Shown here piece after piece: positions 7,571 through 49,696 of a stretch of 64,000 nt of DNA. The DNA comes from a virus: UHGV virus genome UHGV-0144373. One strand, given 5' to 3'. Numbering within the stretch: position 1 is the stretch's first letter; each line of letters opens with the position of its first letter. The translations under genes and the position numbers were made by a program. The notes under the pieces were generated by a model, which was not told where the DNA came from, did not search any database, and was given only the letters and a program-made list of their open reading frames with translations.

Positions 7571-7625
7571 TTTTAACAACTATGAGGGTCGTAAAAGACC
7601 CTCTAAAAATAACTTTGGAGAGACC

Positions 7626-7883
7626 ATGAAAGATTTAATAGAAAAACATGAGCGGCCTATATACTTGCTCCACAAGCCTCGGAAAACGATGTACTATGTG
7701 AGTAGCACAGACATGATGATAAAACAAAATGATGACTCATGGGTTGCTGGTATCTCTTACATCTCTACAGCAGATGGTAAAATCTACGCAAGACCTTATG
7801 AGATGTTTAACAAAGAAAATTGGGAAGTTTTAGACAGAAAACAAGCCTTAGAAATGATAAAGAAAGGAGAAATCACGCTATGA
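7626..7883 (+). CDS. hypothetical protein
   Basis: ATG7626 after GGAGAG; lies between nrdA and nrdB. Confidence 0.4.
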   Translation: MKDLIEKHERPIYLLHKPRKTMYYVSSTDMMIKQNDDSWVAGISYISTADGKIYARPYEMFNKENWEVLDRKQALEMIKKGEITL

Positions 7884-8953
7884 TTAACCAGCACCCAATC
7901 TTTTTAGGTGGTGAGAGAAAAACTTTTGACTCACTTAATAAGCACTACCCAAAAATCTTTGAACTTTATAAGCAACAAAAAGCACAAGACTGGTCAGAAG
8001 ATGAGTTCCCTTTTGAACAATCACGTCTTGATTTTGAGAGTGTCCCAGCATCAATGTCAGGTGTAATGCTTGAGATTCTTAAGTGGCAATGGGAAGCAGA
8101 CACTCAAGTTGCTAAGAGCTTGGCATTTGCCTTTGCACCATTTATCTCTGATGACATCTATGCAACTGCAATTATGAAGCAGTCTGAGATTGAAAACCTA
8201 CATGCCCTCACTTACTCGGAGATTGTAAGGCAATGTATTAAAAACCCTGAAACAATCTTAGATGAGATTAACCAGAATGTTGCTGTGCAAGAACGATTAA
8301 AAACTGTGAATCGTGTTCTTGAAGAATTACTGGATGAAGGCATAAACTATCGGCTGAGTTATGTCCGTGACTCACTTCTGGACAAAGACCCTTTACACTT
8401 CCATAAAGTGATTCTGAAAGGGCTGTTTGCAGTGACTGCACTTGAAGGTATATCTTTTATGGCATCCTTTGCATGTACTTTTGCACTTGATGCTCAAGAT
8501 AAATTTCAGGGTATTGCTCAAGCTGTCCAGAAAATTATGCTTGACGAAATCCTTCACACTAAAATTGATATTGAAGTTTTAAAAGAAACTTTAAGAGATG
8601 ATGAGTGGCAGAAAGCTTTTCAACAAATTCTTCCAGAGATTAAAGTAATCTTAGATGAAGTAGTTGAAAGTGAAGAGAAATGGTCGTATTATATCTTCTC
8701 CGAAGGACGTGCTGTAGTTGGCTTAAATACAAAGCTTCTTCATGAGTGGGTTTACTATAATGCTGCCCCACTGTATGATATGTTTGGCATTCCCAGAGAT
8801 TTTGTAGCTCCTAAAGAACCACCTTTGAAGTACATGATTAAGAAGATGGAAATTGATAAAGAGCAGAATGCTAATCAGGAGCAACAGAATGGTGCGTACC
8901 TATTGAATACTGTTGTAGATGATTTGAATAGTGGATTTTTAGAGGTTCCTTAA
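7880..8953 (+). CDS. nrdB: ribonucleoside-diphosphate reductase beta subunit
   Basis: ATG7880 after AAGGAGA; about 357 aa; di-iron ExxH-type motifs; immediately follows nrdA. Confidence 0.8.
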   Translation: MINQHPIFLGGERKTFDSLNKHYPKIFELYKQQKAQDWSEDEFPFEQSRLDFESVPASMSGVMLEILKWQWEADTQVAKSLAFAFAPFISDDIYATAIMKQSEIENLHALTYSEIVRQCIKNPETILDEINQNVAVQERLKTVNRVLEELLDEGINYRLSYVRDSLLDKDPLHFHKVILKGLFAVTALEGISFMASFACTFALDAQDKFQGIAQAVQKIMLDEILHTKIDIEVLKETLRDDEWQKAFQQILPEIKVILDEVVESEEKWSYYIFSEGRAVVGLNTKLLHEWVYYNAAPLYDMFGIPRDFVAPKEPPLKYMIKKMEIDKEQNANQEQQNGAYLLNTVVDDLNSGFLEVP

Positions 8954-9195
8954 TGACTTATATAATTTACTCCAAAACTGGATGCCCTCAGTGTGAGACT
9001 GCAAAGAATTTTGCAAAAGCTCGTGGTATTGACCATGTTGTAAGAATGTTAGGGCAGGACTATGAACTATCAGACCTGATGGATATTGCACAGATGCCAG
9101 TTCGTCAGATGCCATTCATCATGAAAACTGATGGACAAAACCTAAAGCCTGTTGGTACGCTACAGAATTTTATGGCAGAGGTGAATAATGCTTAA
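8953..9195 (+). CDS. glutaredoxin/NrdH-like redoxin
   Basis: 80 aa; CPQC dithiol motif near N-terminus; TAATG overlap with nrdB stop. Confidence 0.6.
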   Translation: MTYIIYSKTGCPQCETAKNFAKARGIDHVVRMLGQDYELSDLMDIAQMPVRQMPFIMKTDGQNLKPVGTLQNFMAEVNNA

Positions 9196-9394
9196 ACGCA
9201 TTTGGGAAGGTTTGGTTGTTGATGCACCAGCTATTGTGATTGGTATGCTGATTGTTAACCTATTTACTGACTTTGAACAAGGTTCATTGTTTGGAGCCAT
9301 GTTACTATGGGTTATCTTCGAAATATTAGAGATACAGTTAGGTATCACTGAAAAGCTAAGAGAACTCTTTTCGAAGTTTTCTAAAAAGATTTAA
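9188..9394 (+). CDS. small membrane protein (hypothetical)
   Basis: 68 aa with a hydrophobic core. Confidence 0.35.
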   Translation: MLKRIWEGLVVDAPAIVIGMLIVNLFTDFEQGSLFGAMLLWVIFEILEIQLGITEKLRELFSKFSKKI

Positions 9395-9402
9395 AATGAA
9401 AT

Positions 9403-9423
9403 GGTCTCTTCGGAGACCTTTTT
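9403..9423 (+). terminator. rho-independent terminator
   Basis: GGTCTC-TTCG-GAGACC followed by TTTTT. Confidence 0.55.
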
Positions 9424-9442
9424 AGCATGTAAAGGGGCAATA

Positions 9443-11587
9443 ATGAACAAAGTACAGATTATTAAAAAGAATGGCTCACTCGAAGAACCTGATATCAAAA
9501 AAGTTTTAGTAGCAGTCACAAAGTCAGCTAACAGAGTTGGTTATAAAGAGCTTCCACCAGATGTTACTCAAGCTCTTGAGTCAGCATTTATGAGGATTCT
9601 GGTAAAGTCCACTAAACAGAATAATTTGCTAATTTCGGTAAATGATATTCACAGTATTGTTGAGGGTGCTTTGGCAGAAGTCAATCACGAAATCTATGAG
9701 TCTTACTCAACATATAGAAATTACCGTAAAGAAGTTGCTCAAAATTGGGATGAACTCTACCAGAAGACCAGAGATACACTCTTCTTAGGTGACAGAGAGA
9801 ATGCTAACTTTGACAGCAGTTTAATTTCTACAAAAGGTTCAATTATTCGTGGTTATCTGACTAAAGAAATCTTTAAACAGTACCATTTAACACCAGAGGA
9901 ACTTGAAGCCATTGAAAAAGGGTTTATCTATATCCATGATTTAAGAGACCTAATTTTTGGTGGTATCAACTGTTGCCTGTTTGACATTGGTAAAGTCCTG
10001 AAAGGTGGCTTTGAAATGTCTGGCATCGAATATTGTGAACCGAAGTCTGTGCTGTCGGCCTTACAGGTTATTGGTGACGTAGTTCTTTCAGCAACTGCAC
10101 AGCAATTTGGTGGTTTTACTTTAGCAGAGATTGATAAGGTACTTGTGCCGTATGCTAAGAAGTCTCTACGCTATCATGCTGAGAAAGCAGCATCTTATGG
10201 TATTCCTAAAGAACATTACCACAATTATGTCATGGAGCAGCTACAGCTTGAATTAACTCAGGGTTTCCAGTCACTCGAAATGAAACTAAATACTGTACCT
10301 TGTAGCCGTGGTGATTTTGCATTTACAACTTTGACATTTGGATTACTTGACTCAGATATGTCTAATGAAGACAACCGACTGCAATACATGATTGCAAACA
10401 CCATTCTTGATGTTCGCATGAATGGACAAGGTAAGAGCAAGAAGCCTGTTGTATTCCCTAAACTGGTTTATATTCATGACCAGAAGAGACACGATGAGGA
10501 TATCTGTCAAGGCCAACTGTACAGCAAAGCTATTGAGTGTTGCTCTAAAGCGATGTATCCAGATTTCTTAAGTGTATCTGGTCATGGTGCTGTAGCAGAA
10601 GCTTTTGAGCGTTCTGGCAAGGTAATTTCACCGATGGGTTGCAGAGCTTTCTTATCCCCATATCTTAACGAGAATGGAGAAGAGTTCTACGTTGGTCGTG
10701 CTAATATTGGTGCTGTATCTTTGAACTTACCAATGATTTACCAGTATTCTAAAGAGAATGGTTTAGATTTCTGGAAAGAGCTTGATAAGTACCTAGAAAT
10801 GATTCGTAGCTTCCATAAGAAACGTTACGAAATGATTGCCAATATGCCAGCAAGTTCTAACCCTCTTGCATTCACACAAGGTGGTCTGTATAAAGGGACT
10901 AAGAAGCCTACTGACAAGGTTGGTTGGGATATTGTGAAGTCCTTCACAGCTTCTTTTGGGGTTACTGCTCTTGATGAGTTATCTGTTCTTGCTGAAGGTA
11001 AACGACTTCATGAAGTTGGAAGTTCTAGTTTTGCATACGATGTTCTGGCATACATTAACATGAAAACTGAAGAGTTTAAGAATGAAGATGGCTTCCTGTA
11101 TGCAGTATATGGCACTCCAGCAGAGTCATTGTGTGGAACTCAGCTAAAACAGTTCAGAGATATGTTTGGTGTTATTAAAGGCGTTTCTGACAAGGAATAC
11201 TTTACAAACAGTTTCCATATGAATGTTGCAGCAAACATCTCACCATTTGAGAAGCAGGACTTAGAAGAGCCATTCTTCCATATCTGTAGAGGTGGCAGAA
11301 TCCAGTATGTAAGGGTAGCTAACCCAGAAAACTTACCAGCACTTAAAAGTTGTATTACCAGAGGGATGTTGAAGGGTTTTTATCAGGGACTTAACTTTGA
11401 CTTAGCAATCTGTGAACATTGTGGTAACAGACCAAAGGCTGATGTGGAAGAATGTGAGGTTTGTCATTCACACGATATCTCTGTGATTAACAGGGTGTGC
11501 GGGTACTTGTCATTCACAAAAATTAAAGGTCAGTCTCGAATGAATGACGCTAAGATGGCAGAAATTAAGGATAGAGTTTCTATGTAA
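9443..11587 (+). CDS. nrdD: anaerobic ribonucleoside-triphosphate reductase (class III)
   Basis: ATG9443 after AAAGGGG; ATP-cone N-terminus; C-terminal Zn-ribbon CEHCGN...CEVCHSHD and glycyl-radical motif NRVCGYL. Confidence 0.85.
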   Translation: MNKVQIIKKNGSLEEPDIKKVLVAVTKSANRVGYKELPPDVTQALESAFMRILVKSTKQNNLLISVNDIHSIVEGALAEVNHEIYESYSTYRNYRKEVAQNWDELYQKTRDTLFLGDRENANFDSSLISTKGSIIRGYLTKEIFKQYHLTPEELEAIEKGFIYIHDLRDLIFGGINCCLFDIGKVLKGGFEMSGIEYCEPKSVLSALQVIGDVVLSATAQQFGGFTLAEIDKVLVPYAKKSLRYHAEKAASYGIPKEHYHNYVMEQLQLELTQGFQSLEMKLNTVPCSRGDFAFTTLTFGLLDSDMSNEDNRLQYMIANTILDVRMNGQGKSKKPVVFPKLVYIHDQKRHDEDICQGQLYSKAIECCSKAMYPDFLSVSGHGAVAEAFERSGKVISPMGCRAFLSPYLNENGEEFYVGRANIGAVSLNLPMIYQYSKENGLDFWKELDKYLEMIRSFHKKRYEMIANMPASSNPLAFTQGGLYKGTKKPTDKVGWDIVKSFTASFGVTALDELSVLAEGKRLHEVGSSSFAYDVLAYINMKTEEFKNEDGFLYAVYGTPAESLCGTQLKQFRDMFGVIKGVSDKEYFTNSFHMNVAANISPFEKQDLEEPFFHICRGGRIQYVRVANPENLPALKSCITRGMLKGFYQGLNFDLAICEHCGNRPKADVEECEVCHSHDISVINRVCGYLSFTKIKGQSRMNDAKMAEIKDRVSM

Positions 11588-17598: not shown

Positions 17599-19380
17599 AT
17601 GACTAAATCACTTTATGCAGTACCAGCAGGTCTTAATGCAGATGCTTACAAGGCATCACATATATATCAGTATCCAGATGCTACACAATATCTTATGTTG
17701 AACCTGACACCACGTAGTGATAAATGGTTTAACAGTCCTTTAGCAATTGACGGTGTAGTGGCTTTTGGTATTCAACGTTTTGTTAAAGATTACTTGATAG
17801 ACCACTGGAATGCCACTTTCTTTGAACGTGATAAAAAAGAAGCAATTGACGAAATCTTAGAAGTCATGAATGGTGTTCTGGGTAAAGATGCTATCGGTCG
17901 AGAGCATTGGGAAGCACTTCACGACTTAGGCTATCTACCAGTTGAAGTATACGCTGTAGAAGAAGGTGCAGTTGTTCCTATGCGTGTCCCAATGATTGTC
18001 TTCCAGAACACTGTTTCAGGCTTCCATTGGGTAGCAGGGTATCTGGAAGATGCTTTCTCTGCTGAGATTTGGAAGGCTTGCACTATTGCAACTATTGCAT
18101 TGCATTACAAACGCATCTGTAAGAAGTGGGCTGACCTTACTTGCGACAATGACTTACATTTACCCTATCAGTGCCATGACTTTGCTATGCGTGGTATGTC
18201 CGGCTTTACTGATGACGCATTTAACGCTGTAGGTCACTTAACCAGCTTTAAAGGAACTGATAGCTTCCCTGCTGTGTATACGGCTAAACGAATCTATGGA
18301 CAGTCCTACCCAATCTCTGATATTGGTAGCTCTGTACCAGCCACTGAACACTCTGTGATGTGTGCAAACATTGCTTGGGAAGGTGGTAATGAATTGATTG
18401 AAGATGAAAGACGTTTTAAAGGTGAGTTACAAACCTTCCGTCGTTTCTTAACAGAAACTTACCCAACTGGTATTGCAAGTATTGTTTCAGACACTTATAA
18501 CTTCTGGAGAACTGTGTCAGAAATCTTACCAGCACTACGTAAAGAAATTATGGAACGTGACGGTAAACTGGTAATTCGCCCTGACTCTGGAGACCCTGTA
18601 CATATTGTCACAGGTTATAAAGCAATCCACTTAGAGTGTGCTAAAAAGGCTTATTATGAGCACCTAAGCAAGCTGGAAGCCAGTGACACAATGCTGAATG
18701 CTGTTCTGAACATGAAGCTTGAAAACATCAGCTATGGTATTGCTGGATGGCTACTGTCAGAAGGATACGAAATGGTTGTTGATAGAGAAGACTTTGAAGT
18801 TGCTGATACAGTGATGTTGAAAAATGCTTATATGGTTGGTTCTGCAAACGTTATAACACGTCCTGTGGCTGAGATTGATGGAGCTATTAAGACACTGTAC
18901 AACATCTTTGGAGGAACTATTAACTCTAAAGGGTTTAAGGTACTGGATGAGCATATCGGTCTTATCTATGGTGACTCTATCACACTGGAACGTGCAAACG
19001 AAATCCTGAAGCGTCTGTATGAAATGGGTTTTGCAAGCTCTAACGTAGTATTTGGTGTAGGCTCTTACACTTACCAGTACATGACTCGTGACACCTTTGC
19101 ATTTGCTGTCAAAGCAACTCTTGCAAGCATTGGTGGTAAAGAGATTATGCTTGCAAAAGACCCTAAAACAGATAGTGGTGTTAAGAAATCTGCTTTTGGC
19201 GGTGTAGCACCTATGTGGGATGGTGATAAGTTGAAAGCTGTAGATGGCTATGGATTCCAGAGCTTTGCAGATGCACTTGAACATCCAGCTTGTGCTTTAC
19301 GTTTAGTCTTTAGTGACTCTGAGCAGTACGGTTACACATCTCTTGGTGATATTCGAAATAATATTGACAAGCAGCTTTAA
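17599..19380 (+). CDS. nicotinamide phosphoribosyltransferase-like protein (Nampt/NadV homolog)
   Basis: 593 aa; GFTDDAFNAVGHL, GTDSFPAVY and SVPATEHSVMC segments recalled as Nampt-family-like (from memory); immediately downstream of the prs-like gene. Confidence 0.7.
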   Translation: MTKSLYAVPAGLNADAYKASHIYQYPDATQYLMLNLTPRSDKWFNSPLAIDGVVAFGIQRFVKDYLIDHWNATFFERDKKEAIDEILEVMNGVLGKDAIGREHWEALHDLGYLPVEVYAVEEGAVVPMRVPMIVFQNTVSGFHWVAGYLEDAFSAEIWKACTIATIALHYKRICKKWADLTCDNDLHLPYQCHDFAMRGMSGFTDDAFNAVGHLTSFKGTDSFPAVYTAKRIYGQSYPISDIGSSVPATEHSVMCANIAWEGGNELIEDERRFKGELQTFRRFLTETYPTGIASIVSDTYNFWRTVSEILPALRKEIMERDGKLVIRPDSGDPVHIVTGYKAIHLECAKKAYYEHLSKLEASDTMLNAVLNMKLENISYGIAGWLLSEGYEMVVDREDFEVADTVMLKNAYMVGSANVITRPVAEIDGAIKTLYNIFGGTINSKGFKVLDEHIGLIYGDSITLERANEILKRLYEMGFASSNVVFGVGSYTYQYMTRDTFAFAVKATLASIGGKEIMLAKDPKTDSGVKKSAFGGVAPMWDGDKLKAVDGYGFQSFADALEHPACALRLVFSDSEQYGYTSLGDIRNNIDKQL

Positions 19381-42902: not shown

Positions 42903-44318
42903 ATGAGCGAGTTATTTAAACATGCGCACCTTCATGCAGGTCGAACTGAAAATGGTGCTGTAAACCATACTTCATCAATGTCTGCTCTTGTAGACTTTTA
43001 CAAAGCTGCTGGTTCAAGCCGTAGCAACGTAGAAATCTTACCAGACCTGTTCTACAAAGCTTTGCGTGAGGATGTTGATGTTGCAGTTCGTATTTTGCTT
43101 CATATGCGAGATGTACGAGAAGGTATGGGTGAGCGTAAAGCCTTCAGAACTGTTTTGCTTCAAGCGATTGAAGACAAAGTTTTAGAGCCTACACAGTTTC
43201 TTCGCATTATGGATAAGATTGCAGAACTTGGTCGTTTTGATGACTTCAAAATCTTCGTAGGTACTCGTTTCGAGACAGATGCCTTCAAACATTTAGAAGC
43301 AGCATTACTAGACCCTGCAACAGCAGGTTTGGCAGCTAAGTGGTTACCACGAGTCAAACCACGTCATAAGCAGTTTGTAAAACGTTTCTGCAAGTTTGCC
43401 AACTTGAGTGAGAAAGAGTACCGCACACTGTTATCTGCACTGTCTGATACGGTTGAGCAAAAAATCTCTGCTAATGAGTTTGGTAAGATTGACTACAGTA
43501 AGATTCCTTCACTCGCTGCTGCACGTTACCAAAAGCTCTTTAACCGCAAAGATGGAGAACGTTACAAAGCTTACATCGAATCACTCTCAAAGGGTGAGTC
43601 TAAGATTAACGCTGGTGCTGTTTATCCATACGATGTGATTAAGTCTCTCAAGCATGGTAATGCAGATGTTGCCAATGAGCAGTGGAAAGCACTACCAAAC
43701 TGGATGGCAGAAGGTGAGAACATCTTGTGTATGACCGATGTTTCAGGCTCAATGTCTTGGGTGAATCTTGGTTCAATCACTGCCCTTGATATTGGTGTAT
43801 CACTTGCCTTGTATGTAGCAGAACGCAATACTGGTTGCTTTAAGGATGAGTTAATGGTTTATTCAACAAACCCTTACTTCATTGAACTGAGTGGTGATTT
43901 ACGAAACCGTCATCGTCAGGTGATGCGACACGTTGAATATGGCTCAACTAACTTACAAGCAGCTTTTGACCGCATTCTTGAGATAGGTAAGAGAAACAAC
44001 TTGACTCAGAAAGATATGCCAAGCAAGCTTATCATCTTCTCCGATATGGAGTTCAATCAGGTTGATGGAGCTAACGGTCGTACAAACTTTGAAGCAATTC
44101 GAGATAAGTACGAAAAAGCTGGATATGAGATGCCACAACTGGTATTCTGGTACTTAGCAAACCGTAATGGTACTTGCGAAGTGTCTGTTAAGGATAACGG
44201 TGTAGCAATGGTATCTGGTTTCTCTCCAGCCACTTTAAAAGCTCTGCTTGGTGGTGAGAAGTTTGACCCAATCAGCGTAATGCTCAAAGCAGTAATGATT
44301 GACCGTTACATCTGGTAA
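42903..44318 (+). CDS. von Willebrand factor A (vWA) domain protein
   Basis: 471 aa; MIDAS motif DVSGSMS in the C-terminal half; large N-terminal domain of unknown type. Confidence 0.55.
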   Translation: MSELFKHAHLHAGRTENGAVNHTSSMSALVDFYKAAGSSRSNVEILPDLFYKALREDVDVAVRILLHMRDVREGMGERKAFRTVLLQAIEDKVLEPTQFLRIMDKIAELGRFDDFKIFVGTRFETDAFKHLEAALLDPATAGLAAKWLPRVKPRHKQFVKRFCKFANLSEKEYRTLLSALSDTVEQKISANEFGKIDYSKIPSLAAARYQKLFNRKDGERYKAYIESLSKGESKINAGAVYPYDVIKSLKHGNADVANEQWKALPNWMAEGENILCMTDVSGSMSWVNLGSITALDIGVSLALYVAERNTGCFKDELMVYSTNPYFIELSGDLRNRHRQVMRHVEYGSTNLQAAFDRILEIGKRNNLTQKDMPSKLIIFSDMEFNQVDGANGRTNFEAIRDKYEKAGYEMPQLVFWYLANRNGTCEVSVKDNGVAMVSGFSPATLKALLGGEKFDPISVMLKAVMIDRYIW

Positions 44319-44484: not shown

Positions 44485-44561
44485 CTCTGTTTAGCTCAGC
44501 TTGGTAGAGCGTTCCGTTTGGGGCGGTAAGGCCGGAGGTTCAAGTCCTCCAACAGAGACCA
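44485..44561 (+). tRNA. tRNA-Pro (anticodon TGG)
   Basis: Cloverleaf folded by eye: acceptor CTCTGTT/AACAGAG, anticodon loop TTTGGGG, T-loop TTCAAGT, encoded CCA. Confidence 0.65.
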
Positions 44562-44568
44562 AATTAAT

Positions 44569-44646
44569 GTTCCAGTAGACAAAATGGTATAGTCACCACT
44601 CTTTCAAAGTGGATATCTGAGGGTTCAAATCCCTTCTGGAACGCCA
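44569..44646 (+). tRNA. tRNA-Glu (anticodon TTC)
   Basis: Acceptor GTTCCAG/CTGGAAC, anticodon loop CTTTCAA, T-loop TTCAAAT, CCA. Confidence 0.6.
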
Positions 44647-44653
44647 GTTTTGA

Positions 44654-44725
44654 CAGAAGACCAATTACAGCAAACTTAATCTACTCATCTGACACGAAAT
44701 CGGACAAAGAAGATATTTGGTCTGG
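44654..44725 (+). repeat. inter-tRNA structured element, CAGAAGACC...GGTCTGG family (copy 1)
   Basis: Starts CAGAAGACCAATTACAGCAA, ends TTGGTCTGG; termini complementary. Confidence 0.45.
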
Positions 44726-44737
44726 TCATTGAGAATT

Positions 44738-44813
44738 GCGGGTATAGAGAAAGGGCGTCTCACATGTCTCATTAGCATGGTATCGGCAGGTTCGACTCCT
44801 GCACCCGCCTCCA
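44738..44813 (+). tRNA. tRNA with anticodon CAT (Met, fMet or Ile2)
   Basis: Anticodon stem CATGT/GCATG, loop CTCATTA, T-arm GCAGG-TTCGACT-CCTGC, CCA; acceptor has one mismatch. Confidence 0.45.
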
Positions 44814-44819
44814 ATTTTG

Positions 44820-44880
44820 CAGAAGACCGTATTCAGCAACAAAATACTTTTTGCGGATAAAAGAAAAAACACGGTCTGGC
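44820..44880 (+). repeat. inter-tRNA structured element (copy 2)
   Basis: CAGAAGACCGTATTCAGCAA...ACGGTCTGGC. Confidence 0.45.
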
Positions 44881-44890
44881 AATGTATTAA

Positions 44891-44967
44891 GGTTAGGAAG
44901 CACATAAGGTATGTGCGGTCGCCTGTTAAGCGAATGGCACAGGGTTCGAATCCCTGACTAACCGCCA
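44891..44967 (+). tRNA. tRNA-Asn (anticodon GTT)
   Basis: D-stem GCAC/GTGC, anticodon loop CTGTTAA, T-arm CAGGG-TTCGAAT-CCCTG, CCA. Confidence 0.6.
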
Positions 44968-45036
44968 AATTTAGGAGAGAAGCGATTGCTCACCGATTTG
45001 TAAGGTGCAAGTCCTTAGCCTGAATAGAAATTAAAT

Positions 45037-45124
45037 GTGTCGTTATCCCGTAGATGGTAGCGGTGGGGACTGTAAATCCCTTGTCATTGAGACTCGGTAG
45101 GTTCGACTCCTACACGGCACACCA
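45037..45124 (+). tRNA. tRNA-Tyr (anticodon GTA), long variable arm
   Basis: Acceptor GTGTCGT/ACGGCAC, anticodon loop CTGTAAA, 15-nt variable arm, T-arm GTAGG-TTCGACT-CCTAC, CCA. Confidence 0.6.
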
Positions 45125-45129
45125 ATAAA

Positions 45130-45207
45130 GGTTATGTAGTTTAATTTGGTTAAAATACTCCCCTGTCACGGGAGATGATGAGGGTTCAAATCCCTTCGTA
45201 ACCGCCA
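45130..45207 (+). tRNA. tRNA-Asp (anticodon GTC)
   Basis: Acceptor GGTTATG/CGTAACC, anticodon stem CTCCC/GGGAG, loop CTGTCAC, CCA. Confidence 0.65.
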
Positions 45208-45268
45208 ATTTTGAGAGGGCTATTTAGCCCCTCCCTTAAAGGGTTCTTACGAGTATCCTTTAAAGGAG

Positions 45269-45341
45269 CAGAAGACCAAATACAGCAAGAACGTATGAAA
45301 TTTCAAGCCAATTTAATTTTGAAAATTTAAACTTGGTCTGG
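45269..45341 (+). repeat. inter-tRNA structured element (copy 3)
   Basis: CAGAAGACCAAATACAGCAA...ACTTGGTCTGG. Confidence 0.45.
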
Positions 45342-45354
45342 CTCAACAAATTTA

Positions 45355-45486
45355 CAGAAGACCGTTTACAGCAAAACTTAAACAATCTATTTCTCCGGTA
45401 AAGAAAAGGCGAAGGTTCGATTCCTTCACTCGGCAGATGTCGAGTTGGTGTAATGGTAGCACTTAAGATGATAAACAACGGTCTGG
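45355..45486 (+). repeat. inter-tRNA structured element (copy 4) containing tRNA-like hairpins
   Basis: CAGAAGACCGTTTACAGCAA...CGGTCTGG; inside: T-arm-like GAAGG-TTCGATT-CCTTC, acceptor-like hairpin ACTCGGC-AGAT-GTCGAGT, D-arm-like GTG-TAATGGTAG-CAC. Confidence 0.4.
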
Positions 45487-45488
45487 TA

Positions 45489-45630
45489 ATTATCTTTGTA
45501 GATAAGTTATTAAGCTTACCTGTGAGTATGCGACCACAAAGGGTGAAAGGGTAAATTCTAGATTTAAACCCAAAAAGGCACATCGCTACAGACCTTAAGC
45601 AAGTCTGGGTAGCTTATCTACAAAGATAAT
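45489..45630 (+). repeat. perfect 18-bp inverted repeat flanking a 106-nt structured segment
   Basis: ATTATCTTTGTAGATAAG (45489-45506) and its exact reverse complement CTTATCTACAAAGATAAT (45613-45630). Confidence 0.7.
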
Positions 45631-45635
45631 TTAAT

Positions 45636-45711
45636 GGAAGTGTAGCAGAATGGTGATGCGGCAGACTTTTAATCTGACAGGCGATGGGTTCGAATCCCTC
45701 CACTTCTACCA
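45636..45711 (+). tRNA. tRNA-Lys (anticodon TTT)
   Basis: Acceptor GGAAGTG/CACTTCT, anticodon loop CTTTTAA, T-loop TTCGAAT, CCA; T-stem weak. Confidence 0.5.
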
Positions 45712-45715
45712 AAAT

Positions 45716-45792
45716 GGTTCAGTCGCAGATAAGGTAATGCAAGGGTCTCATAAGCCCTATGAATGTGGGTTCGATTCCCATCTGAACCTCCA
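45716..45792 (+). tRNA. tRNA-Met (anticodon CAT)
   Basis: Acceptor GGTTCAG/CTGAACC, anticodon stem AGGGT/GCCCT, loop CTCATAA, T-arm GTGGG-TTCGATT-CCCAT, CCA. Confidence 0.6.
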
Positions 45793-45794
45793 AT

Positions 45795-45869
45795 TGTGGG
45801 TTAGCATAAATGGTAATGCAAACGGCTGATAACCGTTAGAAGAGGGTTCGATACCCTCACCTACAACCA
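45795..45869 (+). tRNA. tRNA-Ile (anticodon GAT)
   Basis: D-stem GCAT/ATGC, anticodon stem AACGG/CCGTT, loop CTGATAA, T-arm GAGGG-TTCGATA-CCCTC, CCA. Confidence 0.65.
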
Positions 45870-45884
45870 ATTTCAATAAAGTTG

Positions 45885-45913
45885 TTGACATTGAGATGTG
45901 ACTACTTTATAGT
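45885..45913 (+). promoter_or_regulatory. sigma70-like promoter inside tRNA array
   Basis: TTGACA, 17-nt spacer, TATAGT. Confidence 0.5.
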
Positions 45914-46117
45914 AACCTTAGTTTTCGTTGCGTAGCGTCTATTTTGCAAATTTAAAATAAATGCAAACGACAATGTTTTTCTGGCAGTAGCTTGATAGGC
46001 TAAACACCAGTGAGGTCTTCCAATCCCTCATCAAAGAATTTGGCGTACTCGCCCACGGTATGATTAATAAGGTGGGCATCTTTAAGGGCTTTCTAAGAGA
46101 GTCTTTAAAGATAATTA

Positions 46118-46199
46118 CGGGGCGTATCTCAGCTGTCTTCTAAACAGCCGTTAACCGAGTAAGTGGAGTATGCGGGTTCGAGTCCTGCCGCCTCGACCA
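46118..46199 (+). tRNA. atypical tRNA-like gene, anticodon TCT (Arg); D-arm apparently missing
   Basis: Acceptor CGGGGCG/CGCCTCG, perfect anticodon arm GCTGT-CTTCTAA-ACAGC, T-arm GCGGG-TTCGAGT-CCTGC, CCA; only 5 nt between position 9 and the anticodon stem, and a 23-nt variable region. Confidence 0.35.
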
Positions 46200-46342
46200 A
46201 TTTAGTTAGCAGATTACTTAGACGACCTAAGCGGGTCTTCCTGTAGGGAGGTGGTCTGTATCTCATGTTTTCCAGAACATGTAAATAATCTGAGAAGGGG
46301 CTTTACAGTGTTGAGATAATACGGTAAGCTTCGAATTATAGT

Positions 46343-46425
46343 ATGGGATGATGTTAAGACTCTAAGGCATGAGCAACGGCTTCCAACACCGTTTCAAAGG
46401 GGTTCAACTCCTCCGTCCCATGCCA
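46343..46425 (+). tRNA. tRNA, anticodon undetermined (possibly Trp, CCA)
   Basis: Acceptor ATGGGAT/GTCCCAT, T-loop TTCAACT, CCA; best anticodon hairpin AACGG/CCGTT around TTCCAAC; about 7 extra nt in the D region. Confidence 0.3.
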
Positions 46426-46438
46426 AAGTCTTATTAGG

Positions 46439-46528
46439 GGTAGGTAGCGGCTAATGGTAGCCAAACTGTCTTGAAAACAGTTGCCACTGTAGAGATACGG
46501 TGAGGGTTCGACTCCTTTACTTACCGCC
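46439..46528 (+). tRNA. tRNA-Ser (anticodon TGA), long variable arm
   Basis: Acceptor GGTAGGT/ACTTACC, anticodon stem ACTGT/ACAGT, loop CTTGAAA, about 20-nt variable arm, discriminator G. Confidence 0.6.
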
Positions 46529-46784
46529 TAATAAGATTTTAAAGCCAAGCTTCATTCGGATGTTGCTTTGGTATCCCTCGTGTATTGTCTAACACACTGA
46601 TAAATCACCTAGTAGGTGTCACGGAGAAGAGATAATATCAAGCTCTCCAAAGGTTCTAGTCACCGGATTAAACAAGACTATGCAAAGACCTTTTTAGGTC
46701 TTTTTAGAGGGCTTCTAAGGTTATTACAGCTTGTTGTGGAACCTTGTTGCTTAGGTTCTTAGAAGTTCTCTAAAAAGATTTAAT

Positions 46785-46861
46785 GCACCTATAGCCCAAC
46801 TGGTAGAGGCAGCAGACTTAGAATCTGCTCAGTGTGAGTTCGAATCTCTCTAGGTGTACCA
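46785..46861 (+). tRNA. tRNA with anticodon TAG (Leu by anticodon) but short variable arm
   Basis: Acceptor GCACCTA/TAGGTGT, anticodon stem GCAGA/TCTGC, loop CTTAGAA, 5-nt variable loop, discriminator A, CCA. Confidence 0.5.
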
Positions 46862-46868
46862 AATTAAT

Positions 46869-46944
46869 GCAGGTGTAGCAAAATGGTTATGCGGCTGACT
46901 CTTAATCAGTAAGACGATGGGTTCAATTCCCTCCACCTGTACCA
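46869..46944 (+). tRNA. tRNA-Lys (anticodon CTT)
   Basis: Paralogous to the TTT tRNA; anticodon loop CTCTTAA; T-loop TTCAATT; CCA. Confidence 0.55.
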
Positions 46945-46950
46945 AACATT

Positions 46951-47026
46951 GGGGATGTAGTTTACATGGTTAAAACATAAGTTTTGCAAACTTAAGTACA
47001 GGGTTCAATTCCCTGCTTCTCCACCA
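46951..47026 (+). tRNA. tRNA-Ala (anticodon TGC)
   Basis: G3:U70 wobble in acceptor (Ala identity element), anticodon stem TAAGT/ACTTA, loop TTTGCAA, T-arm CAGGG-TTCAATT-CCCTG, CCA. Confidence 0.65.
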
Positions 47027-47032
47027 ATTAGT

Positions 47033-47107
47033 GCATCCATAGTTTAAATGGGAAAATTACAGTCTTCCAAACTGAGGTTGAGGGTTCGATTCCCTCTGGA
47101 TGCTCCA
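47033..47107 (+). tRNA. tRNA-Gly (anticodon TCC)
   Basis: Acceptor GCATCCA/TGGATGC, anticodon loop CTTCCAA, T-arm GAGGG-TTCGATT-CCCTC, CCA. Confidence 0.6.
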
Positions 47108-47114
47108 AATTAAT

Positions 47115-47190
47115 GCTCCTATCGTATAATTGGCTATTACGGTTGCCTTGTAAGCAACTTATCAGGGTTCGAATCCTTGTGGGAGCACCA
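47115..47190 (+). tRNA. tRNA-Thr (anticodon TGT)
   Basis: Acceptor GCTCCTA/TGGGAGC, anticodon stem GTTGC/GCAAC, loop CTTGTAA, CCA. Confidence 0.65.
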
Positions 47191-47285
47191 ATTCAGAGGT
47201 CAAGTGAAAGACCGCTGGTGTCAACTGAAGACCGTAACAAATTCCACGGAGTTGAGTTAGCGGCACAACTTCAGACCTCTTTCAT

Positions 47286-47360
47286 ACTCGCTTAGTTTAT
47301 ATGGTAAAACACCACCCTTACAAGATGAAGAAAAAGGTTCAAGTCCTTTAGTGAGTACCA
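47286..47360 (+). tRNA. tRNA-Val (anticodon TAC), weak anticodon stem
   Basis: Acceptor ACTCGCT/AGTGAGT, D-stem GTTT/AAAC, loop CTTACAA with 3 of 5 stem pairs, T-arm AAAGG-TTCAAGT-CCTTT, CCA. Confidence 0.45.
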
Positions 47361-47361
47361 T

Positions 47362-47439
47362 GTTCCAGTATCCCAATTGGCAGAGGATGCAAGCTCAAAC
47401 CTTGTATTAGTGATGGTTCGAATCCGTCTTGGAACACCA
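47362..47439 (+). tRNA. tRNA with anticodon CAA (Leu by anticodon) but short variable arm
   Basis: Acceptor GTTCCAG/TTGGAAC, anticodon stem GCAAG/CTTGT, loop CTCAAAC, discriminator A, CCA. Confidence 0.5.
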
Positions 47440-47444
47440 ATTTT

Positions 47445-47520
47445 GCAGGATTAGTTCAAATGGATAGAGCAACAGTCTACGAAGCTGTTAATAGGGGTTC
47501 GAATCCCTTATCCTGCACCA
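47445..47520 (+). tRNA. tRNA-Arg (anticodon ACG)
   Basis: Acceptor GCAGGAT/ATCCTGC, anticodon loop CTACGAA, T-arm AGGGG-TTCGAAT-CCCTT, CCA. Confidence 0.65.
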
Positions 47521-47538
47521 GACAAGTAAGAGGAATTT

Positions 47539-47781
47539 ATGCAAACATTAATCGTCATTGAACATGAAAATTCCAATAGTATTGAGTTTGTAAGGGTTCC
47601 CACTATAGATACCCACATTTTCTTGAAAGTCGGATGGGGATGTGACCCAATAAAAGTAGAAAATTTTATTGGTCATTACTTTGGTGGAAGACAACTTAAA
47701 AGCGTCAATTTTGAGACAATGTTACCAGAAAACTCAGAAACAAATAATAATGTTTATCTCCTTACGAGGATTAGACAATGA
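47539..47781 (+). CDS. hypothetical protein embedded in tRNA array
   Basis: 80 aa; AAGAGGA SD. Confidence 0.4.
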   Translation: MQTLIVIEHENSNSIEFVRVPTIDTHIFLKVGWGCDPIKVENFIGHYFGGRQLKSVNFETMLPENSETNNNVYLLTRIRQ

Positions 47782-48335
47782 GATATCTGAAGTATGCTTC
47801 ATGGATTTTCCTAGCTTTGTTAGAACCATTGGCAGCAACCTTAGCAGTTATCTTAGCACCCTTTGTAGTCCCATTCTACAGTGAGAAGAAAGGTCATCTA
47901 CCTTTTGGATTCAGATGGATGGAGACATATGACAACCCAATTGATGGTGATAAAGGTCATGTCGAACGATGGGCTAAGATTAGAAAGATTGGTAAGCTTG
48001 GTGTCTATATGCAGAGAGTTGGTTGGCTCTGGAGAAACAAAGCTTATAACTTCTCTTACCATGTGTTAGGAAGAGATGTAAAAGATGTTACTAAGTGGAA
48101 AGGTAATATCAATGTAAGTTCTAACCCTGAAGATAATCAGACAGGTTATCTCCTAATGTGGAACAGTAATGCTTGGGGATTATTCGCTTTTATCCCGTCA
48201 ATTAAAGTCTTTGGTAATCAATTCTACTGGAGAATTTATGTTGGGTGGAAACTTAAAAGTGTTGTCCCAAAAGAAAGAGCATTCTCAAGGGAAAGAGTTA
48301 TGTTGGCATTCTTTATTCATCCACTGAGAAAGTAA
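47778..48335 (+). CDS. hypothetical membrane-associated protein embedded in tRNA array
   Basis: 185 aa; hydrophobic N-terminus; ATGA overlap with upstream ORF. Confidence 0.4.
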   Translation: MRYLKYASWIFLALLEPLAATLAVILAPFVVPFYSEKKGHLPFGFRWMETYDNPIDGDKGHVERWAKIRKIGKLGVYMQRVGWLWRNKAYNFSYHVLGRDVKDVTKWKGNINVSSNPEDNQTGYLLMWNSNAWGLFAFIPSIKVFGNQFYWRIYVGWKLKSVVPKERAFSRERVMLAFFIHPLRK

Positions 48336-48343
48336 AGATTTAA

Positions 48344-48419
48344 AGGGGATTAGTTTACAAGGTTAAAACCTCGGTCTTTGAAATCGAAGAAGTTGGTTCA
48401 ATTCCAACATCCCCCGCCA
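48344..48419 (+). tRNA. tRNA-Gln (anticodon TTG)
   Basis: Acceptor AGGGGAT/ATCCCCC (1:72 mismatch), anticodon loop CTTTGAA, T-arm GTTGG-TTCAATT-CCAAC, CCA. Confidence 0.55.
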
Positions 48420-48421
48420 AT

Positions 48422-48500
48422 GCTCCATTACTCCAATTGGCAGAGAGGCCAGACTTAAAATCTGTGTTATGTATCGGTTCGAATCCGATATGGAGTACCA
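48422..48500 (+). tRNA. tRNA with anticodon TAA (Leu by anticodon) but short variable arm
   Basis: Acceptor GCTCCAT/ATGGAGT, anticodon loop CTTAAAA, T-arm ATCGG-TTCGAAT-CCGAT, discriminator A, CCA. Confidence 0.5.
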
Positions 48501-48505
48501 AATTT

Positions 48506-48581
48506 AGCGGTATAGCATAACTGGCAATGCAGCAGCCTCTGAAGCTGTCCTATTAAGGTTCAAATCCTTATGCCGCTGCCA
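48506..48581 (+). tRNA. tRNA-Gln (anticodon CTG)
   Basis: Acceptor AGCGGTA/TGCCGCT, anticodon stem GCAGC/GCTGT, loop CTCTGAA, T-arm TAAGG-TTCAAAT-CCTTA, CCA. Confidence 0.6.
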
Positions 48582-48612
48582 CTTCTAAGGATTCTTGCGA
48601 GAGTCCTTAAAT

Positions 48613-48688
48613 GTGGCCTTATCATAAACGGTAATGACCCATGCTGTGAACATGGTCTATACGGGTTCAAATCCCGTAGGTCACCCCA
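48613..48688 (+). tRNA. tRNA-His (anticodon GTG)
   Basis: Acceptor GTGGCCT/AGGTCAC, anticodon stem CCATG/CATGG, loop CTGTGAA, discriminator C, CCA. Confidence 0.65.
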
Positions 48689-48693
48689 ATTTA

Positions 48694-48770
48694 TAGTCCA
48701 AGTAGCTTATATGGTTAAAGCGCGTGTCTGAAAAACATGAGAAGAGGGTTCAAATCCCACTGGACTACCA
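48694..48770 (+). tRNA. tRNA-Phe (anticodon GAA)
   Basis: D-stem GCTT/AAGC, anticodon stem CGTGT/ACATG, loop CTGAAAA, T-loop TTCAAAT; exact 5' boundary ambiguous. Confidence 0.5.
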
Positions 48771-48786
48771 ATTTCAAAGGTGCTTA

Positions 48787-49521
48787 ATGAAAGAGATGAC
48801 AGAACAAGGTAAGGAGATTTTTAATCTCTTAAAAACCGGTAAAGGGTTCTCTAACCCGCTTATTACTGGTGCAGCAGTTCTCGGTGGAACCGTAGCTGCT
48901 TCTACATCACTTGTAAGCTCTATTAGTTCTGTAACAGACCCTACAATGAAGGAGAAACTTGTTGCTGCTGGGCTTACAACAGTCCTTCTAAACAGCTTTA
49001 CAACAAGCCTTACAAGCACTACAGCAACTACTAAAACTCTGACAGACTACGGTCAAAAGTCTATTGATGAGTTTTCATCACGTATGCAGGTAGCAAAGGG
49101 GTATTCCAATGTTATGGGTGCAGCAGGAGAACAAGTTGGTTGTACACCATTCAGTGGTATCATGGGTGTTGCTACAGAGTATGGTCAAAAAGCTATTGAC
49201 ATGATAAACAGTACACTAGATAGTGTTAATGGTGTGTTAAGTGACTTACAAGATGCTATTGATAAGGGTCTTGATACTGTTTCTGATTTAGCTAACCAAG
49301 CTGTCAGTAAGATTAATGAAGGTATCTCAAAGATTACAGCTTATGCAGATGAAGTTGTGCAGATGATTGAAGAAGAAGCTGCCCTTATTGCAGAGTACCT
49401 TAAAACGAATATCAATGGGTTCTTAGCAGGTATCTTACCAGACTGGTTTGATGATGCTTGTAAAACTGGTGTAATTGATGCTATTGCAACACCAGAAATG
49501 AAGAACGCATTACAGAAATAA
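48787..49521 (+). CDS. hypothetical Ser/Thr-rich protein
   Basis: ATG48787 after AAAGG; the track start at 48724 (GTG) would overlap tRNA-Phe. Confidence 0.4.
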   Translation: MKEMTEQGKEIFNLLKTGKGFSNPLITGAAVLGGTVAASTSLVSSISSVTDPTMKEKLVAAGLTTVLLNSFTTSLTSTTATTKTLTDYGQKSIDEFSSRMQVAKGYSNVMGAAGEQVGCTPFSGIMGVATEYGQKAIDMINSTLDSVNGVLSDLQDAIDKGLDTVSDLANQAVSKINEGISKITAYADEVVQMIEEEAALIAEYLKTNINGFLAGILPDWFDDACKTGVIDAIATPEMKNALQK

Positions 49522-49523
49522 AT

Positions 49524-49616
49524 GGAAGATTAACCCTAAAAGGTAAGGGAGCAGTTTGCTAAACTGCCAGTAGCTGAGAAATCGGTGTACCAGTTCAAGT
49601 CTGGTATCTTCCTCCA
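49524..49616 (+). tRNA. tRNA-Ser (anticodon GCT), long variable arm
   Basis: Acceptor GGAAGAT/ATCTTCC, anticodon stem GCAGT/ACTGC, loop TTGCTAA, 21-nt variable arm, T-arm ACCAG-TTCAAGT-CTGGT, CCA. Confidence 0.6.
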
Positions 49617-49620
49617 ATTT

Positions 49621-49696
49621 GAATCCGTGACAGAAATGGCTATGTGCCTGTCTGCAAAACAGGTTTATAAGGGTTTGAGTCCCTTCGGATTCTCCA
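49621..49696 (+). tRNA. tRNA-Cys (anticodon GCA)
   Basis: Acceptor GAATCCG/CGGATTC, anticodon stem CCTGT/ACAGG, loop CTGCAAA, non-canonical T-loop TTTGAGT, CCA. Confidence 0.5.

Follow-up and report, generated by a model that had tools for sequence, protein, structure and literature searches.

Three short-armed, type I tRNA-Leu genes in a phage tRNA array

Introduction

Textbooks and reviews of tRNA identity treat the long variable arm as a defining feature of bacterial leucine transfer RNA (tRNA-Leu). Short-loop tRNA-Leu is already known from animal mitochondria, from Streptomyces coelicolor (PMC6614811) and from some mycobacterial tRNA clusters (PMC6582537). Here we describe three tRNAs with Leu anticodons (UAG, CAA and UAA) that lack the long arm. 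They are encoded in a stretch of 64,000 nucleotides (nt) from the UHGV virus genome UHGV-0144373, the whole of which is referred to below as the window. Our search of the full-text literature found no description of short-arm tRNA-Leu in phages, enterobacterial phages included. In the literature searched, the common occurrence of this design in phages, and its entry into hosts that have purely type II tRNA-Leu of their own, appear to be undescribed.

In Escherichia coli, the identity set recognised by leucyl-tRNA synthetase (LeuRS) consists of A73, A14, A15-U48, G18G19 and the tertiary pairs that link D loop and T loop (PMC9976931; introduction of Fan et al., 2019, PMC6614811). This enzyme requires neither the anticodon nor the long arm, and arm-less as well as anticodon-arm-less variants are still active (PMC9976931; PMC6614811). 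We consider it probable that the three tRNAs of the window are working type I leucine tRNAs, made from the phage array and charged by the host LeuRS.

Results and Discussion

Structure of the three tRNAs

A preliminary description, made from the sequence alone, had reported three tRNAs with Leu anticodons that fold without a long arm. ARAGORN reproduced its coordinates and anticodons exactly for all three, and a canonical long arm was not assigned. The lengths of 77–79 nt and the variable loops of 5–7 nt were borne out by the ARAGORN drawings and by our own segmentation. The segmentation also agreed with the earlier reading of A73 in all three, and of long arms in the tRNA-Tyr (15 nt) and both tRNA-Ser (20 and 21 nt) of the same array. 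All three tRNA-Leu have an encoded CCA, which is included in the lengths given here and in Table 1. None of them has a variable arm of more than 10 nt forming a hairpin, as class II tRNAs do; their variable regions are 5, 6 and 7 nt. Instead they combine a Leu anticodon and a variable loop of about 5 nt with an otherwise canonical bacterial cloverleaf, as a type I tRNA-Leu should.

The Rfam tRNA model (RF00005, gathering score 29 bits) matched all three genes over their full length (model positions 1–71), with 57.3 bits for Leu(UAG), 41.2 bits for Leu(CAA) and 47.5 bits for Leu(UAA). A structure-aware pattern for the tRNA-Leu core hit exactly these three sites in the window, where shuffled sequences (n = 100) gave an expectation of 0.00. 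The Leu genes are spaced 2–8 nt from the adjacent genes: tRNA-Val ends at 47360, tRNA-Leu(CAA) follows at 47362–47439 and tRNA-Arg starts at 47445. An overlooked arm has no physical space, since the adjoining genes sit too close.

The anticodon loops (CTTAGAA, CTCAAAC and CTTAAAA) all have 7 nt with U33. The stems show a G1.U72 pair in both Leu(UAG) and Leu(UAA), a U50.U64 mismatch in the T stem of Leu(UAG) and a C.U as the top pair of the anticodon stem of Leu(UAA).

Leucine identity elements and comparison with host tRNA-Leu

Segmentation showed that all three tRNAs keep U8, A14, A15, G18G19 and A73. The final variable nucleotide is T in each of them, so A15 can pair with U48. Position by position, the D arm of the host leuW, GCGAAATTGGTAGACGC, can be aligned with theirs, which read GCCCAACTGGTAGAGGC, TCCCAATTGGCAGAGGA and CTCCAATTGGCAGAGAG. 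The 17-nt D arm, with a 3-base-pair (bp) stem and an 11-nt loop (xAAyyGGyAGA), is identical in architecture to that of E. coli leuZ, leuX, leuW and leuVPQ: after the 3-bp stem come a non-Watson-Crick 13:22, A14, A15, two pyrimidines, G18G19, Y, A, G and A. Relative to E. coli tRNA-Leu, the long arm is the sole missing feature, and the arm-independent identity set is kept.

For the structural comparison the tRNA-Leu genes of strain K-12 were fetched by coordinate. They are 85–87 nt long with arms of 13–15 nt, and the tRNA-Leu of phages T4 (87 nt) and T5 (85 nt) are likewise long-armed. The comparison with host tRNA-Leu that had been proposed at the outset thus finds identity elements and D arm shared and arm length different. 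With the variable region and the anticodon removed, core identity of the three to E. coli tRNA-Leu is 0.50–0.64, while it is 0.72–0.83 to type I tRNA-Leu from phages of unrelated hosts and from viral contigs. On these values we rejected a recent deletion of the arm from a host tRNA-Leu. Searched by blastn against 5,426 complete E. coli genomes, the three tRNAs gave no match.

Conservation in Felixounavirus and related phages

Judged by its sequence, the window comes from a Felixounavirus, a phage of the Felix O1 type whose hosts are E. coli and Salmonella. The array has 96% identity to Escherichia phage VpaE1_ev035, and about 400 records of Felixounavirus and related Ounavirinae, with Escherichia, Salmonella, Shigella, Citrobacter and Erwinia as hosts, match the array. 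Public records with the same gene order (MZ726791, KC139543) annotate Leu(tag), Leu(caa) and Leu(taa), the label tRNA-Leu(caa) being given in both to the counterpart of tRNA-Leu(CAA), and the shape goes unremarked. Copies of Leu(UAG) that are 100% identical and annotated as tRNA-Leu occur in many Felixounavirus records, and Leu(UAA) has at least 99% identity in 216 of 264 matching phage records.

Two unrelated type I tRNA-Leu(UAG) sequences occupy the slot of tRNA-Leu(UAG) among Felixounaviruses. The alternative occupant is a 79-nt type I tRNA-Leu(UAG) starting with GGGAGATTGACGG (loci L001 2825–2903 and L002 2825–2903), as against the 77 nt of the window gene. The replacement of this cassette is base-exact, with flanks that are identical up to tRNA base 1 and again from the ACCA end on.

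A family of short-armed tRNA-Leu in phages

A distant blastn search with Leu(UAG) gave near-full-length, gap-free matches to annotated tRNA-Leu in phages of very different hosts. The matched phage loci were fetched and searched with ARAGORN for arm length. Three short-armed tRNA-Leu were found in Mycobacterium phage FudgeTart (Bixzunavirus; 74–76 nt, beside an 84-nt tRNA-Ser) and in Erwinia phage Tian (Ounavirinae). Two were found in Streptomyces phage Elmer (group not assigned), Enterobacter phage F2M1E (Vequintavirinae) and Pseudomonas phage PE09 (Otagovirus), the last with a tRNA-Ser of 90 nt and a tRNA-Tyr of 85 nt. Cyanophage P-RSM6 (Kyanoviridae) has one, and Enterococcus phage Porthos (Herelleviridae) has one short and one long tRNA-Leu. 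In Porthos (locus L009, 3825–4068) the 86-nt long-arm Leu(UAA) and the 75-nt short-arm Leu(UAG) have about 85 nt between them.

The frequency of the two arm types was estimated with an arm-neutral pattern, in which U8 and the three loops (D, anticodon and T) are fixed and the arm length is free, run on IMG/VR and on the GTDB species genomes. The samples consist of the first 120 stretches per database in scan order and give proportions, not a census. Because a T loop with TTCGA and a D loop with GGYAGA are required, the pattern samples a subset of tRNA-Leu. Variable-region length was strictly bimodal in these samples, with 4–7 or 11–19 nt and never 8–10 nt. The short-arm pattern was matched in 29 of the 120 IMG/VR stretches, and 11 of the 120 hold both arm types. 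Among the tRNA-Leu called by ARAGORN in these stretches, 55 of 183 (30%) are short-armed; where a stretch has at least 3 tRNAs the figure is 49 of 138. This suggests that short-arm tRNA-Leu is frequent in phages, at about 30% of the tRNA-Leu in the arm-length-neutral sample.

We then compared 182 distinct short-arm tRNA-Leu from phage and viral-contig sequences. Across the four stems, pairing at each position is found in 88–100% of them, and each stem position, except for one invariant pair, shows 3–6 pair types, i.e., compensatory changes occur in all four stems. A73 is present in 181 and A14A15 in 178 of the 182. The variable loop has 5 nt in 160 sequences and ends in T in about 92%. The family includes each of the six Leu anticodons, in loops that have the canonical U33 and a purine at 37. 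Two changes go with the loss of the arm: at position 9, 134 short-arm sequences have A and 47 have G, as against G throughout in the sampled long-arm genes, and the 13:22 pair is C.A in 147 of 182. The stem covariation and the conserved A73 and A14A15 indicate that the family is under selection as tRNAs.

These data bear on whether the genes could be decaying pseudogenes or gene-finder artefacts in which the arm was lost by deletion. Such decay might explain the U.U in the T stem of Leu(UAG) and the C.U in the anticodon stem of Leu(UAA), and the folding energies of the three are no better than those of shuffled sequences. However, near-identity is kept over hundreds of genomes in several genera of the subfamily, compensatory changes are found family-wide, the Rfam scores lie far over the threshold, and the bimodal variable-region lengths are unlike random decay. 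We regard pseudogenes or artefacts as extremely improbable.

Long arms are kept by 73 of 74 tRNA-Ser and 35 of 36 tRNA-Tyr in the same viral loci. Seryl-tRNA synthetase (SerRS) and bacterial tyrosyl-tRNA synthetase (TyrRS) use the long arm, which would be why the Ser and Tyr tRNAs of these arrays keep it. Since they do, arm loss is specific to the one class II isotype whose synthetase needs no arm.

Codon use and amino-acid identity

Leu makes up 8.1% of the codons in 67 open reading frames (ORFs) of the window, and TTA, TTG and CTA account for 24%, 13% and 12% of the Leu codons in these ORFs. In E. coli, UUA, UUG and CUA are minor codons served by the single-copy genes leuZ, leuX and leuW. 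The phage anticodons UAA, CAA and UAG duplicate these host minor isoacceptors, and the matching of supplied anticodons to over-used codons fits the usual codon-supply explanation for phage tRNAs.

The meaning of the codons was examined in the phage NrdA (5336–7570), which was aligned with 21 homologues of 48–51% identity. In alignment columns conserved to at least 80%, Leu stands under TTA in 4 of 4 cases, under CTA in 6 of 6 and under TTG in 4 of 7; the remaining TTG columns have Ile or Met. The same column pattern was obtained for CTG, CTT and CTC, which these tRNAs would read less or not at all.

It could be argued that the tRNAs are charged with another amino acid and that UUA, UUG or CUN is partly recoded. 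Loss of the class II arm has accompanied the reassignment of Leu codons in some organelles and yeasts (PMC7609411), and the tRNAs with UAA and CAA anticodons share A35, A36 and A73 with tRNA-Phe. Yet none of the three has the G3:U70 of tRNA-Ala, a long arm for SerRS or the G34 of tRNA-Phe. The anticodons read sense Leu codons and no stop codon, and the conserved NrdA columns under TTA, CTA and TTG are mostly Leu, just as for CTG, CTT and CTC. With Leu at 8.1% of codons, mis-insertion would also be very costly. A non-Leu identity is unlikely, and we give it very little weight. The preliminary description had left a choice between unusual short-arm tRNA-Leu and tRNAs of another identity, and the first is favoured by the identity elements, the D arm, the relatives among phage tRNA-Leu and the NrdA codons. 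The word unusual holds against cellular textbooks; it does not hold among phages, where short-arm tRNA-Leu is frequent.

Charging by the host LeuRS

In the explanation that we favour, the phage tRNA array would yield the three tRNAs and the host's own LeuRS would attach leucine to them. A LeuRS of the E. coli type reads A73 and the elbow shape, i.e., U8-A14, A15-U48, the placement of G18G19 and the contacts of the D loop with the T loop. As neither the anticodon nor the long arm is read, loss of the arm would be tolerated. Expressed and leucylated by the enterobacterial enzyme, the tRNAs would then be used by the ribosome to decode UUA, UUG and CUA/CUN, which the AT-rich phage uses far more than its host does. 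The window has 14 ORFs of 300 or more amino acids (aa), and no match to an aminoacyl-tRNA synthetase family was found in the 10 largest, with about a quarter of the genome lying outside the window; because none of the scanned ORFs matches a synthetase, the host LeuRS would have to serve.

Several points weigh against charging and use of the tRNAs in the host. The host alone can read all of the codons concerned, and the codon test is thus no proof that the phage tRNAs are used. In the only published test of E. coli LeuRS on a natural type I tRNA-Leu, the enzyme failed to charge the tRNA-Leu(CAA) of S. coelicolor; the authors describe it as charging only type II tRNA-Leu and report that its leucine-specific domain prefers substrates in which the variable loop is large (PMC6614811). 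Thermodynamic folding also gave unremarkable z-scores for the three tRNAs (−0.16 to −1.6), and the minimum-energy structure of Leu(UAA) is not a cloverleaf. The cloverleaf is the minimum-free-energy fold of Leu(UAG) and the centroid fold of Leu(CAA). Uninformative folding z-scores are normal for tRNAs. Because thermodynamic folding was uninformative we relied on covariance models and family covariation, and the cloverleaf of Leu(UAA) is based on ARAGORN, Rfam and the covariation in the family.

The published failure may be accounted for by position 48. The variable loop of the S. coelicolor tRNA-Leu(CAA), ACAGC, gives C48, while the phage tRNAs have U48 together with A15. We think that the phage tRNAs would be charged because U48 with A15 is a determinant for the E. 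coli enzyme that is absent from the Streptomyces substrate.

The same published result could instead mean that the three are stable tRNA-shaped RNAs which are charged poorly or not at all by enterobacterial LeuRS and have a non-decoding role. They might act as decoys that draw off host factors attacking or binding tRNA-Leu, serve in the array as processing scaffolds, or be leftovers that work in some hosts only. Besides the inactivity of E. coli LeuRS, called type II-only, on the S. coelicolor type I tRNA-Leu(CAA) (PMC6614811), this would agree with their being closer to type I tRNA-Leu from phages of unrelated hosts than to host tRNA-Leu. It would also agree with the lack of anything similar in the complete E. 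coli genomes searched, by which the host enzyme meets the design only during infection, and with the presence of non-canonical tRNA-like elements in the array (see Table 1). However, the exact E. coli identity elements are conserved, including A15 with U48 and A73. A decoy would need no intact Leu-anticodon loops, whereas the family has all six anticodons with U33 and a purine at 37, and the three anticodons of the window correspond to codons over-used by the phage. Engineered arm-less variants of E. coli tRNA-Leu do get charged (PMC9976931). A non-decoding role therefore seems improbable to us, and leucine tRNAs that are charged by the host enzyme remain the preferred reading.

Type I tRNA-Leu in bacterial chromosomes

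In the arm-neutral scan of GTDB species genomes, 9 of the 120 loci are short-armed. Single chromosomal type I tRNA-Leu(UAA) genes of about 75 nt were seen in Nocardioides, Gordonia, Arcanobacterium (A. bovis) and Herbiconiux, and a chromosomal type I tRNA-Leu(CAA) in Saccharothrix (Actinomycetota loci L289 2732–2806, L260 4746–4820, L252 491–566, L240, L251, L318 and L332 7368–7442). These hits widen the single published Streptomyces case to more genera and to the UAA isoacceptor. The actinobacterial chromosomal genes and the phage genes have a common core, GCCCAAyyGGCAGAGGC...nCAGT...GGTTCGA. A prophage origin was considered for two of the bacterial short-arm loci and rejected, as their neighbours are ordinary chromosomal genes according to Pfam (a subtilase and a histidine kinase at one, a Na/H antiporter and Ppx/GppA at the other).

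Two more type I hits lie in contigs of Planctomycetota metagenome-assembled genomes (MAGs), and one of them is a three-gene run. On contig JBCCHQ010000007.1 (locus L303, 3550–3912), tandem type I tRNA-Leu genes with anticodons cag, taa and gag are followed by an odd 100-nt tRNA-Tyr call. This run looks like a phage-type array within the MAG bin.

Implications

A wider reading can be put forward, although only tentatively and with considerable doubt. Type I tRNA-Leu might form a pan-phage lineage that makes up about a third of phage tRNA-Leu and moves between phages of unrelated hosts, with the loss of the arm shielding it from host factors by which class II features are read, while the LeuRS of most bacteria would still charge it. 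The factors evaded could be tRNA-directed defence nucleases, cross-charging by SerRS or tRNA quality control. Movement between phages of unrelated hosts is proposed because the cassette swap in Felixounavirus is base-exact. If this reading were true, E. coli LeuRS would be able to use natural type I tRNA-Leu, against its published description as type II only, and the phage genes and the patchy chromosomal type I genes of Actinomycetota may have a common origin.

Felix O1 and its relatives are a well-known group, and they carry three such tRNAs with almost no sequence drift. The tRNAs offer a natural set of arm-less substrates with E. coli identity elements for the study of LeuRS specificity. 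They might also give a handle on why phages carry tRNAs, be it for codon supply or for evasion of host defences directed at tRNA. For annotation, it follows that phage tRNA-Leu of 74–79 nt should not be counted as errors.

Other features of the array and its surroundings

ARAGORN, run on the whole window, called 25 tRNAs on the + strand, all of them in the array, which is broken up by a few small ORFs (Table 1). The called tRNAs cover 19 amino acids, with Trp the sole one missing. The earlier count, by which all 20 amino acids are covered only if the three tRNAs are Leu and the element at 46343 is Trp, is thus right, with 19 called and Trp plausible though not called by the default tools.

Table 1. 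Coordinates of the tRNA array, its short-armed and long-armed members and other features of the window.
Feature	Position	Strand	Basis
tRNA array (25 called genes)	44485..49696	+	ARAGORN, Rfam; gene order matches Felixounavirus records
tRNA-Leu(UAG), type I, 77 nt, variable loop TCAGT (5 nt)	46785..46861	+	ARAGORN, Rfam, segmentation
tRNA-Leu(CAA), type I, 78 nt, variable loop ATTAGT (6 nt)	47362..47439	+	ARAGORN, Rfam, segmentation
tRNA-Leu(UAA), type I, 79 nt, variable loop GTTATGT (7 nt)	48422..48500	+	ARAGORN, Rfam, segmentation
tRNA-Tyr(GUA), 15-nt variable arm, internal class II control	45037..45124	+	ARAGORN, segmentation
tRNA-Ser(UGA), 20-nt variable arm, internal class II control	46439..46528	+	ARAGORN, segmentation
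tRNA-Ser(GCU), 21-nt variable arm, internal class II control	49524..49616	+	ARAGORN, segmentation
Trp-like tRNA candidate	46343..46425	+	Below default ARAGORN/Rfam calling; seen at ARAGORN -ps80
tRNA-like element, hairpin presenting UCU	46117..46198	+	Weak Rfam tRNA-Sec match
471-aa protein directly upstream of the array	42903..44318	+	PHROG 850; Pfam DUF2828 + DUF7788
NrdA, NrdB and NrdD	5336..11587	+	
NAPRTase/NAMPT-like protein	17599..19380		

The gap between tRNA-Ile and tRNA-Ser(UGA) holds two non-canonical tRNA-like elements. The second of them gave no call with ARAGORN at default settings, nor with Rfam at E ≤ 1, but with the ARAGORN option -ps80 (80% threshold) it was called as tRNA-Trp(cca) at 46348–46425. 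It has a 7-bp acceptor stem (ATGGGAT/GTCCCAT) with A1-U72, G73, a CCA end, the anticodon CCA and the T loop TTCAACT. It is irregular in that the D region is about 5 nt too long and a C.A stands at 31:39. The homologue of this element in ASO1A has a canonical CUCCAAA loop, and in the related Erwinia phage Tian a normal tRNA-Trp of 76 nt lies between tRNA-Gly and tRNA-Thr instead (locus L011, 4745–4820). From these sequence features, a tRNA-Trp is plausible.

The first element pairs perfectly over its 7-bp acceptor stem (CGGGGCG/CGCCTCG) and has A as discriminator, a CCA end and a canonical T arm (GCGGG-TTCGAGT-CCTGC). Its hairpin GCTGT-CTTCTAA-ACAGC would present UCU, for the Arg codons AGA/AGG, an isoacceptor that is not in the array. 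It is without a D arm, and about 23 nt lie between the hairpin and the T stem. Only a weak match to the Rfam tRNA-Sec model was obtained (23.3 bits, E = 0.36), and ARAGORN missed the element even at -ps80. In LR699048 an untyped 'tRNA' is annotated at the equivalent position.

The 471-aa protein encoded directly upstream of the array belongs to PHROG 850, 'RNA-binding protein' (E = 1.5e-182), and has the Pfam domains DUF2828 and DUF7788; a PDB sequence search with it gave no match. Its position makes an RNA-protein partnership with the tRNA-like RNAs of the array possible, and a system similar to Ro and Y RNA would be a matter of speculation.

The discriminator of tRNA-Ser(GCU) is U73 by segmentation. 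G73 is the usual discriminator of bacterial tRNA-Ser. The tRNA-Ser(UGA) has G73 and an encoded CCA that is only partial. The tRNA-Glu(UUC) at 44569–44646 and tRNA-Leu(CAA) have an identical 5' acceptor strand and positions 8–9 (GTTCCAGTA); they differ in the discriminator (G and A, respectively) and also at position 66. Further away, the window encodes NrdA and NrdB (class Ia ribonucleotide reductase), the anaerobic NrdD and a NAPRTase/NAMPT-like protein, a set that is ordinary for the group.

Comparison with known systems

Animal mitochondrial tRNA-Leu is class I and, like the phage tRNAs, has A73 and A14 as identity elements (PMC9976931). The mitochondrial tRNAs have degenerate D and T loops and a dedicated LeuRS, whereas the phage tRNAs have canonical G18G19 and TTCGAAT loops.

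The short-loop tRNA-Leu(TAG) of mycobacterial tRNA clusters likewise belongs to a mobile tRNA array, in that case with HNH endonuclease genes (Behra et al., BMC Evol Biol 2019; PMC6582537). There it coexists with normal long-arm chromosomal isoacceptors, and the host is an actinobacterium. The tRNA is mentioned in one sentence as a structural oddity, and its identity and distribution are not analysed there (PMC6582537).

The class II tRNA-Leu of E. coli (leuZ, leuX, leuW and leuVPQ) and of phages T4 and T5 resemble the window tRNAs in anticodons, A73, the 17-nt architecture of the D arm and U48, and two of the three share the G1.U72 pair found in leuZ. The role of the T4 and T5 tRNA-Leu is presumed to be alike, namely supplementing rare isoacceptors. 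They differ in the arm, since the canonical class II genes have arms of 13–15 nt and a total of 85–87 nt as compared with 5–7 nt and 77–79 nt in the window. The canonical genes also have G9 and G/A13.A22 where type I genes mostly have A9 and C13.A22, and the core identity of the class II genes (E. coli, T4 and T5) to the window tRNAs is 0.50–0.70.

The closest described system is the type I tRNA-Leu(CAA) of S. coelicolor (Fan, Huang, Ji and Wang, NAR 2019; PMC6614811), which like the window genes is of the bacterial type and has a short variable loop (5 nt, ACAGC); by sequence the two fall into one family. It is chromosomal and is charged by the organism's own LeuRS, which has an adapted leucine-specific domain, whereas the window genes are phage-borne. 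In S. coelicolor, A73 does not serve as an identity element (PMC6614811) and position 48 is C, as against U48 and the E. coli-style set in the phage tRNAs. Unlike the S. coelicolor tRNA, the phage tRNAs enter a host whose tRNA-Leu set is entirely type II.

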